Positions 14,957-18,566 of a stretch of DNA of 20,544 nt are shown piece after piece. Location of the stretch: the IMG/VR virus record IMGVR_UViG_2529293044_000023, one strand, 5' to 3'. Each line of letters opens with the position of its first letter. Positions within the stretch are counted from its first letter, which is position 1. The notes beneath the pieces are model-generated. The model made no database searches. It had not been told where the DNA came from and saw only the letters and a program-made list of their open reading frames with translations. The position numbers and the translations under genes were made by a program. Origin of the DNA: a virus (Duplodnaviria; Heunggongvirae; Uroviricota; Caudoviricetes).

Positions 14957-15055
14957 ATGAAAAATAGAAACGCTTATAAAACCGCATTATTAATGGCTAA
15001 TGCAGGATACTGGTCAGTTGCAATACTGTTTCTCAGAAAAGCATACGGGAAATAA
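14957..15055 (+). CDS. Possible small hydrophobic peptide (32 aa)
   Basis: MKNRNAYKTALLMANAGYWSVAILFLRKAYGK has one predicted TM-like segment. Weak RBS. Below the ORF-track size cutoff. Confidence 0.25.
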   Translation: MKNRNAYKTALLMANAGYWSVAILFLRKAYGK

Positions 15056-15058
15056 CAA

Positions 15059-15418
15059 ATGGCATGTACAACCATTTATAAAGATCGTCGCCGCATGGTA
15101 ACAGCGGCACTCCGGCGGATGCAACGTAAAACAGGTAGTAATCTGCTCGTCGTTGACCTCCCGGACGGAGAAATAACAACGATAGAAATAACTGAACAGT
15201 TCATGAACCAGTTGTTATTACGATTTGAGGGTCTTACCCGTGTTGAATATGGACGGACGGAAGGAGAAGCAACAATCCGTACCGCATACCAGAATGCCAT
15301 CGGTATTAATCAACACACGGAATATCTCACTGAATCAGGGAAACTGATAGTGGACGGCCTTTTAAAAGAGGTTGTTGACTACGTAAAAGAGAAATATATC
15401 AGTGGAGGAATTAACTGA
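15059..15418 (+). CDS. Hypothetical protein (119 aa)
   Basis: ATG-initiated ORF in the early operon; its stop overlaps the next start. Confidence 0.55.
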   Translation: MACTTIYKDRRRMVTAALRRMQRKTGSNLLVVDLPDGEITTIEITEQFMNQLLLRFEGLTRVEYGRTEGEATIRTAYQNAIGINQHTEYLTESGKLIVDGLLKEVVDYVKEKYISGGIN

Positions 15419-15627
15419 TGTCTGATTTATCCCCTCTTATACACGAAAAAGTACAGATCATTATGACGATTGAAAATGGTCAGGTAATAAATACCCGTAA
15501 AGTTCACAATAACGAGATGATTGCCAGCATGGATACCTTCTTGTGGATAGCAAAGAAAGCGGGATATCAGGTAATCGCTCCTGATCTGGAGGAAATCGGT
15601 GACATTAACAGCAATACGAATTCCTGA
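15418..15627 (+). CDS. Hypothetical protein (69 aa)
   Basis: GGAGG RBS; start overlaps the upstream stop (TGATG). Confidence 0.55.
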   Translation: MSDLSPLIHEKVQIIMTIENGQVINTRKVHNNEMIASMDTFLWIAKKAGYQVIAPDLEEIGDINSNTNS

Positions 15628-15850
15628 GTGGGTGCACCTGCAGGCGGTCCGTGTTCTCCGCCAGTTCAGAGCCAGACGAATTCATCCCTGTCGTATGCAC
15701 GGCTCCGGAAACCTGAGTCTGAGGGTTAATCGCCGCTGGCGGCTGCTGTCCCGAGACGGCGGCCAGAACTGGGAAGTAATGAGCCATGAACGATACAGCA
15801 AAGTTAAGGACCGGAAATGAACAATAAACCTTCAAACCAAAAGGAGAGTA

Positions 15851-16432
15851 TTGATGATTAATTCAACCATTACCCCTGAACCTACATTAACAGGCATCCG
15901 TTTTGGTAATCGAATTATTGGTTATTCAACTGCGGTTCGCCAGATCGACAACGGTAACTATGACAAACGAATTCCGGACGGGCTCGATCTGATAGCTTGC
16001 ATTATGGAAGGGATTGAAAGCGGCTGGTTTATGCCGTGTATTGAAAAACAAATCATCCTATGGCGCTGGCTTGTTGTCGCCGTGTTCATTGCTGAGGAGC
16101 AGGAGAAGAACGGGACTGTCGATGTTCAGAATGACAAGGGCGGCGTAGATACAGCCGTTGTATACACAGGAAAACCCGGTTCAATCAGCATTTATCCATG
16201 GTCTGAGCGCTTCGCGCTCGCTAACCATATCGAGGCGGGCGCAATTGAAAAATACGGGCCTGACGTTGGCCAGCAGATGGCGCTGCGTATGTATCAGGAC
16301 ATGGTTGTAACTGACGAGAAATGCGGATTCAGGCTGTCAGCGATGGGCCGGGAGGGACTCAACATACTACATGACAGCTTCATTGAACTGATTCAGAAAG
16401 ACGGTATGCCAGACATGCCGGTTATGCACTGA
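15851..16432 (+). CDS. Hypothetical protein (193 aa)
   Basis: AAGGAGAG RBS 7 nt upstream of the ATG. No domain recognised. Confidence 0.6.
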   Translation: MMINSTITPEPTLTGIRFGNRIIGYSTAVRQIDNGNYDKRIPDGLDLIACIMEGIESGWFMPCIEKQIILWRWLVVAVFIAEEQEKNGTVDVQNDKGGVDTAVVYTGKPGSISIYPWSERFALANHIEAGAIEKYGPDVGQQMALRMYQDMVVTDEKCGFRLSAMGREGLNILHDSFIELIQKDGMPDMPVMH

Positions 16433-16443
16433 GGTGGACGAAA

Positions 16444-17190
16444 ATGAACATAGTAACGATCAATAACAAACAGCTTCCGGCAGTCGAATATCGCGGTCAG
16501 CGTGTTGTGACGCTGGCGATGATTGATGAAGTCCACCAGCGACCGGAAGGAACAGCGCGTGCAGCATTCAACCGAAACCGTGAGCATTTCATCAGCGGTG
16601 TGGATTATGCCGAATTAGGTGCGGACGTAATACGTACGGACCTCCCGGAAGGAACATTCTCTAAATTTGCACCATCAGGGATTGTACTTTTTGAATCAGG
16701 TTACCTGATGTTGACGAAGCCATTCAATGACGCCCTTGCCTGGCAGGTTCAGCGCGAACTGGTTAACAGCTACTTCCGCACTCGCACACCGCTAACGGAA
16801 ATCGAGATGATCGCTGCGATAGCCGCCGACGCTGTTCGTCAACAGAAGCGCCTGAATCATGTGGAAGAACAGCTCGAAACAGTCACAGAAGCGGTGGAAA
16901 CCATCAAACGCGGAAATATGCGCGCCGGATATGTCGGTTATCGCCAGGTGGTCGCCAAAAGCGGAATGACTGATGCTAAGTGCCGCAATCTGGTCAATGC
17001 CTACAGCATCCCAACCGATACGCACGAATTTATGACACCAGATGGTCTTCTTTCGCGCCGGGCTATCGTGGAGCTGGAGCCATTCATGAAAGCATTTCAT
17101 CAGATGATGTCAGAGGCAGAGCCACGTGGTACCCGCTGGTATCACCCGAAGATGGGGCTGTTTCAGGTGATTGGTTGGGAGGGTAAATAA
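16444..17190 (+). CDS. Putative phage regulatory / antirepressor-like protein (KilA-N/ORF6N-like N-terminal domain)
   Basis: N-terminus LPAVEYRGQRVVTLAMIDEVHQRPEGTARAAFNRNREHFISGVDYAEL resembles ORF6N/KilA-N domains, judged from memory only. 248 aa. Confidence 0.5.
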   Translation: MNIVTINNKQLPAVEYRGQRVVTLAMIDEVHQRPEGTARAAFNRNREHFISGVDYAELGADVIRTDLPEGTFSKFAPSGIVLFESGYLMLTKPFNDALAWQVQRELVNSYFRTRTPLTEIEMIAAIAADAVRQQKRLNHVEEQLETVTEAVETIKRGNMRAGYVGYRQVVAKSGMTDAKCRNLVNAYSIPTDTHEFMTPDGLLSRRAIVELEPFMKAFHQMMSEAEPRGTRWYHPKMGLFQVIGWEGK

Positions 17191-17528
17191 TGTCACTCAT
17201 TACACAAAATTTCCGCCTCAATGCGCTGGCAAATCAGTATGCGGCGGCACTGCACAACCACATATCCGCCACCAGCGGTGGTCATTTCCTGATTAATGTC
17301 AATGGGCAATCCATACGAGTAAACATCATCGGTGGGGTTAAAGGCATCAGGGACTTAATCGATGGTTATGCTCTGAAGGCTATCAAAGAAAATTACCCCC
17401 AATGGGAAGCCGTTGGTATTCAACTGTTAAGCAAATGCGTTCGTGGAAACGAGCTGACGCAAAGCGGCAAAGAAATCTGGCAGAGCATGGTCAACGACAT
17501 GAGCGATACCGTTATGGGGAACATGTAA
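17190..17528 (+). CDS. Hypothetical protein (112 aa)
   Basis: Start overlaps the upstream stop (TAATG); ORF in operon context. Confidence 0.55.
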   Translation: MSLITQNFRLNALANQYAAALHNHISATSGGHFLINVNGQSIRVNIIGGVKGIRDLIDGYALKAIKENYPQWEAVGIQLLSKCVRGNELTQSGKEIWQSMVNDMSDTVMGNM

Positions 17529-17750
17529 ATGAAAATCCAATACCAGGACTATGGCGCCGTAGCGAACATCGTGATCACCAGTTCCTGCCTGACATTGCAA
17601 AAGCATAACCGCGTTGTTGATGCGGTGCTGTTTAATGTACAGGGGATCTCTGAAAACCGCAGCGGCTTTTTCTGGGTTAAGTCATCGTTGTCAGGAAAAA
17701 CACGCGACATCCTGCGCGCCTACAAAATCGTACAGCGGGAGGCAAAGTGA
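17529..17750 (+). CDS. Hypothetical protein (73 aa)
   Basis: Starts one nt after the upstream stop; ORF in operon context. Confidence 0.5.
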   Translation: MKIQYQDYGAVANIVITSSCLTLQKHNRVVDAVLFNVQGISENRSGFFWVKSSLSGKTRDILRAYKIVQREAK

Positions 17751-17845
17751 TGAAGTCATTCCTCCTGTCCATACTGTTTAGTCTGCTGCTGGCGTCCGTC
17801 GTTTTCGGTACGCTGATTGAATATAAATTTTTAATGAATTACTGA
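17750..17845 (+). CDS. Possible small membrane peptide (31 aa)
   Basis: MKSFLLSILFSLLLASVVFGTLIEYKFLMNY is a single hydrophobic helix. ATG overlaps the upstream stop (GTGATGA). Below the ORF-track cutoff. Confidence 0.3.
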   Translation: MKSFLLSILFSLLLASVVFGTLIEYKFLMNY

Positions 17846-17853
17846 GGTGCGGG

Positions 17854-18009
17854 GTGGGCAAGATCAAAAACCCAGTTGTACTTATCCATAAGCGAGAAAA
17901 TAGTGACTCCTACGCCGTTACAATCACCTGCGGTAGCCAGAACTATCACGACGCCGTTCTGATGGCGTCGATGGAACTGGATATGAGTGACGATGATGTC
18001 GATACCTAG
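17854..18009 (+). CDS. Possible small protein (51 aa, GTG start)
   Basis: GAGG 6 nt upstream of GTG. Product VGKIKNPVVLIHKRENSDSYAVTITCGSQNYHDAVLMASMELDMSDDDVDT has protein-like composition. Fills an otherwise empty 180-bp gap. Confidence 0.3.
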   Translation: MGKIKNPVVLIHKRENSDSYAVTITCGSQNYHDAVLMASMELDMSDDDVDT

Positions 18010-18027
18010 AGTAAAACAGGCTATTAC

Positions 18028-18483
18028 ATGGCTGAAGAAATCGAGCGACTGAAACAAGCACTTTCCGCTGCGGAAAATAATCTGATTGATTCCGAATGCC
18101 TCGTAGCTGAATTAAGCAAAGCAAAGGATCACGCATATGGGCTGGTCGACACATACGACTGGCAACGTCAGCGTCTCCACGCAGCCGCTGAGAAAGTCCT
18201 CAAATGGTGCAGACAAGAAGCTGAACACCGTACCGGCGATCCAGAGAAAGCAGAAAACTATGCGTGCGTTAAAGAACTACGCGACGCATTAACTTTTTGC
18301 AAAAGTTCTGAAAGCAGCAAGAAGAAAGGCCTGACTATCACCCTGCCCGATATCACATCAAAGGCATTCTGGAGCGGTACCGGAAAAAACGCAAAATTCC
18401 ATCCGGCAACCTATAAACGCTGGGTGAAAGAAGCTATTAAACGGGATTGTGTTATTGCCGGGATCGGCGTGGAGGTGAAATGA
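18028..18483 (+). CDS. Hypothetical early protein (151 aa)
   Basis: ATG-initiated ORF with a coiled-coil-like N-terminus. No family recognised. Confidence 0.55.
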   Translation: MAEEIERLKQALSAAENNLIDSECLVAELSKAKDHAYGLVDTYDWQRQRLHAAAEKVLKWCRQEAEHRTGDPEKAENYACVKELRDALTFCKSSESSKKKGLTITLPDITSKAFWSGTGKNAKFHPATYKRWVKEAIKRDCVIAGIGVEVK

Positions 18484-18566
18484 TGAATTGGCCTGAAGCA
18501 TTCACCGCAGTAGGAGTTGCAATAGCGGTGGCATTTATTCTGTATTCGCTTTTCCGCTGGGGATAA
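18480..18566 (+). CDS. Possible small membrane peptide (28 aa)
   Basis: MMNWPEAFTAVGVAIAVAFILYSLFRWG is a single TM helix. GGAGGTG RBS; ATG overlaps the upstream stop. Confidence 0.35.
   Translation: MMNWPEAFTAVGVAIAVAFILYSLFRWG

Follow-up and report, generated by a model that had tools for sequence, protein, structure and literature searches.

Bacteria and their phages encode several described classes of very short proteins, with which we compare three short open reading frames (ORFs) of the virus record IMGVR_UViG_2529293044_000023, a stretch of 20,544 nucleotides (nt; the window) that is a lambdoid E. coli prophage of 20.5 kb. The frames lie on the plus strand at 14957-15055 (ORF1, 32 amino acids (aa)), 17750-17845 (ORF2, 31 aa) and 18480-18566 (ORF3, 27 or 28 aa), and direct reading of the letters confirmed the positions given in an original prediction made from the sequence. 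The first class comprises the small inner-membrane regulators of at most 50 aa (AcrZ, MgtS, KdpF, MgrB, SgrT and CydX), of which AcrZ, MgtS, KdpF and MgrB act by binding a partner. Partner binding is also the general mode of action of small membrane proteins according to passages of a review (PMC12648545). ORF2 and ORF3 resemble these regulators in size, in their single predicted helix, in having their own Shine-Dalgarno (SD) sequence, in purifying selection and in having been missed by annotation. However, they share no sequence similarity with them and belong to a prophage early operon rather than to host regulons. A definition as single-pass proteins of at most 50 aa fits ORF2 and ORF3, while ORF1 falls outside it.

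A second group, the division inhibitors Kil of lambda, KilR of Rac and DicB of Qin, is likewise small, encoded in early-left or immunity-proximal operons and expressed on induction. The K-12 members KilR and DicB are polar proteins of 62-73 aa that lack a transmembrane segment and are unrelated to ORF1-3. The soluble cytoplasmic character of this group, whose targets are FtsZ or MinC, is not shared by ORF2 and ORF3, which are predicted to be transmembrane; ORF1 is of the soluble type, but its sequence is unrelated. ORF1 can be compared with the FtsH inhibitor CIII of lambda, which is also short, helical and non-membrane and is encoded in the early leftward operon downstream of a regulator. We take the two to be without sequence similarity, and the ORF1 products are strongly basic proteins of 32-42 aa. 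The type I toxins (Hok/Gef, TisB, Ldr, Ibs, ShoB and DinQ) have 19-50 aa and one hydrophobic helix, a description that ORF2 and ORF3 match and ORF1 does not; some are prophage-borne, as passages of the same review state. Each of these toxins has a transcription unit of its own, an antisense RNA and a structured leader that blocks translation, whereas ORF2 and ORF3 are coupled cistrons with open SD sequences at optimal spacing. A further relevant collection is that of Fesenko et al. ('The Cryptic Bacterial Microproteome', PMC11188072), who listed 67,297 clusters of intergenic small ORFs under purifying selection in Enterobacteriaceae (Entero67K). These are also unannotated, and the catalogue gives no functional or phage-context analysis of the ORF2 family. 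Since unannotated conserved small ORFs are so numerous, ORF1-3 add members to a known kind rather than a new principle.

Conservation of the three reading frames

We consider it probable that ORF1-3 are genuine, separately evolving genes of the early-left operon, ORF2 and ORF3 encoding membrane microproteins and ORF1 a cytoplasmic basic microprotein. Queries with the neighbouring genes and with the peptide families of ORF2 and ORF3 supplied about 300 related loci for comparison. An open stretch of some 30 codons can easily arise by chance, and the six frames of the surrounding 5.5 kb contained 109 ORFs with 20 aa or more; ORF1-3 stand above this background because they are conserved. When distinct DNA haplotypes were collected by DNA similarity alone, the frame was intact in 24 of 25 for ORF1, 31 of 32 for ORF2 and 20 of 20 for ORF3. 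Of the 77 haplotypes two were disrupted, one by an insertion of 1 nt and the other by a short duplication. The pooled ratio of nonsynonymous to synonymous polymorphism (pN/pS) in the called frame was 0.39 for ORF1, 0.21 for ORF2 and 0.35 for ORF3, in each case the lowest of the six frames, and none of the three contained a stop. The other five frames of ORF1 and ORF2 gave values of 0.39-3.4 with 12-87 stops (0.53-1.5 and 54-87 stops for ORF1). Synonymous change also exceeded nonsynonymous change in divergent allele pairs of 68-77% nt identity (Fisher p down to 3e-5). Frame and length were held across alleles only 68-80% identical in DNA, the replacements were conservative, and a strong SD sequence stood at a fixed spacing in every allele. 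The original prediction, which had named loss of the frames in related prophages as grounds for its rejection, agrees with this pattern of kept frames and synonymous-biased change. It was also right that annotation misses these genes, as no RefSeq record examined has an annotation of ORF1-3 by the Prokaryotic Genome Annotation Pipeline (PGAP). The GenBank record of phage phi467 annotates ORF2 only (CUW01254.1), and exact copies are called 'hypothetical protein' in scattered GenBank submissions. Taken as sequence evidence, these data make a solid case that ORF1-3 are conserved small protein-coding genes overlooked by standard annotation, and the same kind of evidence carries their division into membrane and non-membrane products.

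Several observations count against this interpretation or reduce its weight. One antisense frame of ORF3 is also free of stops, with a pN/pS of 0.38; it has the same third codon positions as ORF3, and it has neither a full-length ORF nor an operon context. Because the compared sequences are related to one another, the pooled pN/pS values do not rest on independent samples. Family members were gathered partly by motif, a bias that does not affect the haplotype counts because those used DNA similarity alone. Conservation of the last ORF1 codons (GGGAAA/GGGAGG) can partly be explained by the ribosome-binding site of the downstream gene instead of by the peptide. The small-gene tables that Huecker et al. 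(2017) derived from ribosome profiling (Ribo-seq) do not contain the Sakai locus of ORF3. The ORF1-3 peptide motifs were not found in the searchable literature, which offered no direct evidence of translation. The cultures behind the Sakai tables were reportedly not induced. Two structure models made with AlphaFold2 (AF2) are also unfavourable: the single-sequence model of ORF1 is one continuous helix (predicted local distance difference test score, pLDDT, 80.6) and not the hairpin proposed below, and a model of the 73-aa protein encoded before ORF2 (pLDDT 48.5) was too poor for a fold search.

Among published catalogues, an exact ORF2-family sequence, MKPFLLSMLFGLLLVAVVFGALIEYKFLMNY, is cluster Citrobacter_76875 in the supplement of PMC11188072, and the supplement entries listed included neither the ORF1 nor the ORF3 sequence. 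ORF1-3 are mentioned neither in the exo-xis paper PMC10789677 nor in titles on DUF4222. Searches of Pfam, NCBIfam, PHROGs and PADLOC with the three peptides returned sub-threshold noise only. PDB sequence searches with the same peptides and with the 73-aa, 119-aa and DUF4222 neighbours gave no significant relative, and an Rfam scan of the whole window gave no family. ORF1-3 are in this sense new, well-supported unannotated prophage microproteins of a populous known kind. The three phage families are absent from the RefSeq annotation of E. coli, and one of them, ORF3, occurs in Shiga-toxin prophages of O157:H7. Annotating them would remove false 'intergenic' gaps and would provide very small targets for the study of early phage-host membrane interaction.

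The ORF2, ORF3 and ORF1 families

Membrane character was predicted from the summed Hessa-scale free energy (dG) over the best 19-residue segment and from the Kyte-Doolittle mean. According to the original prediction each ORF encodes a single hydrophobic helix, and this held for ORF2 and ORF3, whose dG values were negative or near zero, but not for ORF1 (+4.6). The Kyte-Doolittle means of ORF2 and ORF3 were 2.1-2.8, and their hydrophobicity values resemble those of the controls KdpF and YohP. Ribosome-binding sites had been assigned to two of the ORFs; such sites do exist, yet all three ORFs have one (GGTGAT, GGGAGG and GGAGGTGA, respectively). The stop-start overlaps claimed for two of them are present at ORF2 (17748-17750) and ORF3 (18481-18483).

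ORF2 (MKSFLLSILFSLLLASVVFGTLIEYKFLMNY) occupies 95 nt of a 103-nt gap. Its SD sequence, GGGAGG (17737-17742), lies 7 nt 5' of the ATG and is conserved in relatives. The A of the ATG (17750) is also the last base of the stop codon, TGA, of the 73-aa gene before it (phrog_1001, 17529-17750), giving a 1-nt TGATG overlap in the window and its closest relatives and an ATGA overlap in the others. The family (MKSFLLS..FGALIEYKFLMNY) comprises 19 aa variants with a hydrophobic core at residues 4-23 and an invariant tail FG[AT]LIEYKF. With a best-segment dG of -2.4 in the window and of -2.4 to -3.6 across the family, the product is predicted to be a single transmembrane helix. The charge distribution suggests that its N-terminus is probably inside and the conserved EYKF tail (EYKFLMNY) at the periplasmic interface. 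ORF2 behaves as a cassette that is either present or absent: it was found in 37 of 71 contexts, always behind the 73-aa gene with a start/stop overlap, and its downstream neighbour varied. All five loci located through ORF2 itself in other genera likewise carry the 73-aa gene upstream. For this invariable partner 306 homologues were retrieved, and among those listed every named one is hypothetical and from Enterobacteriaceae. ORF2 was found in Citrobacter, Trabulsiella and Enterobacter, a taxonomic spread that is a lower bound because only 5 of 84 pattern matches in the genome-contig scan were confirmed. A tblastn search of ORF2 against phages returned no match; this is not evidence of absence and is attributed to the low-complexity filter, since phi467 holds the exact sequence.

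ORF3 (MMNWPEAFTAVGVAIAVAFILYSLFRWG) occupies 83 nt of an 87-nt gap, and its ATG overlaps the TGA of the upstream gene. The second ATG (18483) is the most likely start codon and would give 27 aa: every other allele begins in register with it, and GGAGG is 7 nt away. At least eight protein variants follow the pattern M-[STN]-W-P-[DE]-A...G...A.A...[YF][SA][IL][CF]RWG-stop, with W4, P5, A7, G12, A16, A18, F19, S23, R26, W27 and G28 invariant. Alleles with only 48-52% protein identity nevertheless keep an equal length, the M-x-W-P-[DE]-A start and the R-W-G-stop end. A dG of -0.9 in the window, and of about -1 to +0.2 in the family, predicts a single transmembrane helix. The conserved G12, A16 and A18 form a GxxxAxA, small-xxx-small pattern typical of helix packing. 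The charge distribution is that of a protein with its N-terminus probably outside and RWG inside.

The SD sequence of ORF3 (18471-18478) is conserved despite differing upstream genes, which include DUF551, Ea22-like, EaA and other genes in different phages. Homology to many Shiga-toxin (Stx)-converting phages (BP-4795, YYZ-2008, VT1-Sakai and JLK-2012) starts 9 nt 5' of ORF3, at the SD sequence. As a separate observation, unrelated genes 5' of ORF3 in many lambdoid phages share the end ..CCGCCGCAGGAGGTGAA(T) (18471-18479), which encodes ..PPQEV.. and is at the same time the ORF3 SD sequence; it resembles a linker or a mosaic boundary at which modules are swapped. The DUF4222 gene (18571-18813) begins 4 nt past the ORF3 stop. 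ORF3 stands directly before DUF4222 in 24 of 41 distinct contexts, and it also occurs without it. Of 5426 complete E. coli genomes, 485 (about 9%) carry a close ORF3 allele, and an identical, unannotated copy lies between ECs_3010 and ECs_3011 in the Stx1 prophage Sp15 of O157:H7 Sakai, at 2941818-2941904 of NC_002695.2. By tblastn, ORF3 had matches in 99 phage records, some of them weak or implausible (e.g., Gordonia phages). ORF3 adjoins the excision module, a region of the exo-xis type, which has been reported to influence prophage induction (PMC10789677, PMC4195576).

ORF1 (MKNRNAYKTALLMANAGYWSVAILFLRKAYGK) occupies 99 nt of a 184-nt unannotated gap. The SD-like GGTGAT lies at 14949-14954, where relatives have AGGAGG. 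The family of 32-42 aa comprises 31 distinct aa variants with the consensus MTFIKDKxAYKTAxLxAxxG(xx)YxxIAxLFLRKAYG[KR]-stop and the invariant columns A10, G17, Y18, A29 and Y30. No member of the family is more hydrophobic than the window allele; the best segments of its relatives reach +8 to +15, with 4-8 Lys/Arg and polar residues all along. By this prediction the ORF1 product is not a transmembrane or hydrophobic helix but a basic, polar protein. Indels of two residues beside the invariant G17-Y18 suggest a turn, and the fold is probably a helix-turn-helix (HTH) hairpin that turns at this Gly-Tyr pair. In a PDB profile search the best ORF1 matches included designed TPR proteins; these matches were not significant (E = 2.9-5.4), but the resemblance would also suit a hairpin. 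Homology to K-12 YdfB or YdaG had been suspected from the gene order after the DicA-like regulator, and the K-12 sequences ruled it out.

Most ORF1 homologues stand first in a closely packed series of genes, behind a spacer that measures about 70-90 nt. In some phages ORF1 instead has an ATGA overlap with the preceding HTH gene and no leader region. The downstream genes are varied, and ORF1 ends 2-3 nt before the next start or overlaps it by 11 nt. In the window the 119-aa gene (phrog_1737, 15059-15418) begins 3 nt past the ORF1 stop, and its ribosome-binding region sits within the final ORF1 codons. The intergenic block 5' of ORF1 (14910-14937) consists of a small hairpin of 4-5 bp, CGGCC-TCT-GGTCG, followed by GGATTTCCACAACC (GGGGATT..ACAACC), and it is retained upstream of ORF1-family genes although the surrounding spacers have diverged. 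The block could be an RNA-processing, nut-like or translational element. The four predicted pairs of the hairpin are weak evidence, as two are invariant and two show one-sided changes, one of these with a double change. A nut/boxB-like site was considered here and dropped, the covariation support being too thin.

Proposed action and alternative readings

Expression timing, topology and a binding-partner mechanism are inferred. ORF1-3 would be transcribed on one long plus-strand message that runs from a promoter at about 13981-14052 into xis and int. As this message starts at a repressor-proximal promoter, the products would be made after induction or infection and not in the repressed lysogen. 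Given their own SD sequences and close packing (start/stop overlaps or gaps of 3-4 nt), their translation is probably coupled to that of the neighbours. ORF2 and ORF3 would insert into the inner membrane as single-pass proteins and, early after induction, bind and modulate a larger host or phage membrane protein; by analogy with known small membrane proteins, action through such a partner is most likely. ORF2 may work with the 73-aa phrog_1001 protein that always precedes it. ORF1 would act as a basic microprotein in the cytoplasm.

The original prediction favoured Kil-like division inhibitors or small membrane toxins, that is, peptides that depolarise the membrane or block the divisome on induction in the manner of Hok, TisB or SidA of Caulobacter, the last being a membrane-anchored division inhibitor. 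The size and single hydrophobic helix of ORF2 and ORF3 are typical of such toxins, and kil of lambda and of Rac occupies the corresponding part of the operon (as in the K-12 Rac layout; Sakai Sp15 has kil and cIII). None of the peptides, however, has homology to a toxin, Kil or defence family in Pfam, NCBIfam, PHROGs or PADLOC, and the K-12 KilR and DicB sequences have no hydrophobic transmembrane stretch. A type I architecture is missing as well: a consensus scan, which weak promoters could escape, found no promoter-like site on either strand of 14100-19300, and no Rfam RNA was found. The exposed, strong SD sequences and the start/stop coupling within an operon are unlike the tightly repressed stand-alone type I genes, and ORF1 is not hydrophobic. 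We therefore did not retain this assignment and rate a toxin or Kil-like role as rather unlikely.

A different function can be considered for ORF1, which might serve mainly in cis as a leader ORF that loads ribosomes on the downstream gene or regulates it, its peptide having no function in trans. The position of its homologues, nearly always at the head of the packed run and close to the next start, would suit this role, as would the downstream SD sequence in the final codons and the C-terminal octapeptide, where conservation is highest. Positions that vary little or not at all nevertheless occur along the entire peptide (A10, G17, Y18, A22, L24 and K28-G31), and the pN/pS of 0.39 holds over its full length. 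The LRKAYG motif is kept through synonymous codon changes and in front of different downstream genes, and the phages with an ATGA-coupled ORF1 have no leader region. A mainly cis-acting ORF1 is decidedly unlikely, and a cytoplasmic microprotein is the preferred reading.

For ORF2, a cleaved pre-peptide would mean that residues 1-20 are a Sec signal, cut after VFG to free the nearly invariant 11-mer ALIEYKFLMNY to the periplasm or medium, where it would serve as a signal or effector peptide of the phage. The conservation maximum at FG-ALIEYKF, the V at -3 and G at -1, which fit the signal-peptidase rule, and the label 'nonTM ... SIGNAL_PEPTIDE' given to a Citrobacter homologue in the PMC11188072 screen all agree with such processing. 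The 20-residue hydrophobic run F4-I23, on the other hand, extends past the putative cut site and fits an anchor better, no helix breaker stands ahead of the site, and predictors are unreliable for proteins of 31 residues. No receptor-like gene is linked to ORF2, whose only constant neighbour is the 73-aa protein. We regard cleavage as highly improbable, and more improbable still that ALIEYKFLMNY is a diffusible early signal for communication or host manipulation with phrog_1001 as its processing or sensing partner. Were this true, enterobacterial lambdoid prophages would have a diffusible post-induction peptide comparable in principle to the arbitrium of Bacillus phages. A membrane-anchored ORF2 remains the preferred assignment. 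Finally, it is scarcely credible that ORF1-3 are no genes but frames left open by chance within conserved non-coding spacers such as recombination linkers or ribosome-binding regions: such frames are common, PGAP never called these three and no translation data were found, but frame and length are kept at 20-32% base difference, in-frame stops number zero against dozens in other frames, change is synonymous-biased with conservative replacements, only 2 of 77 haplotypes are disrupted and the SD spacing is fixed.

Operon layout and prophage context

All genes flanking ORF1-3 are on the plus strand and form a closely packed run from a DicA/CII-like HTH gene (start 14065), the first of the operon, to an excisionase-like gene (18953) and an integrase gene (19259). 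Judged from this gene layout, the run would correspond to the pL or 'early-left' operon of lambda. The cI-like repressor gene (13151-13918, plus strand) precedes it. The only sigma-70-like promoter matches on the plus strand of 13900-19300 lie at 13981-14052, directly 5' of the 14065 gene, and are presumed to be a pL-type promoter that feeds all three ORFs. Within the same scan no convincing or strong plus-strand terminator was predicted downstream of them. Over 14000-19300, phage phi467 (LN997803) and prophages of a few E. coli chromosomes match the window with 99.4-99.8% identity. In the remainder of the window, the minus strand carries helicase, primase, Q antiterminator (5515-6342), holin (3800-4012) and lysozyme genes, and an IS21-family element with istA (rve domain) and istB occupies 10873-12674 on the plus strand, with the replication genes on one side and the cro/cI region on the other.

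Some neighbouring genes deserve mention. A 62-aa product encoded at 15632-15820 is named 'ParE family toxin-like protein' by PGAP in relatives, and the 69-aa gene just before it (15418-15627) has weak PHROG similarity to anti-repressors. Between ORF2 and ORF3, the region 17854-18483 is a single 209-aa coding sequence (CDS) in phi467 and E. coli 2015C-4136CT1. In the window, a TGG codon has become the stop codon TGA at 18008 (18006-18009), which splits this CDS into pieces of 51 and 151 aa, and PGAP calls the region a partial pseudogene, relatives included. In lambdoid Stx phages, stx usually lies in the interval from Q to the holin gene. No Stx-like ORF is evident in this interval of the window, which holds a plus-strand ORF of 310 aa (4465-5397) that has no Pfam match. 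Phage phi467 is said to be mentioned in work on Stx2f and on the evolution of Stx phages.

Related sequences also appear under unexpected hosts. The Elizabethkingia phage EKP1 (OM284015.1) has about 83% DNA identity to this prophage over the ORF6N region. Homologues of ORF1 occur in EKP1 and in the Aeromonas phage AsXd-1 (MH178096.1), and one of ORF3 in the Actinobacillus phage vB_Apl-pPE4 (PP818812.1). The non-enterobacterial host labels of these three phages may be wrong, for example if the phages were induced from enterobacterial contaminants.

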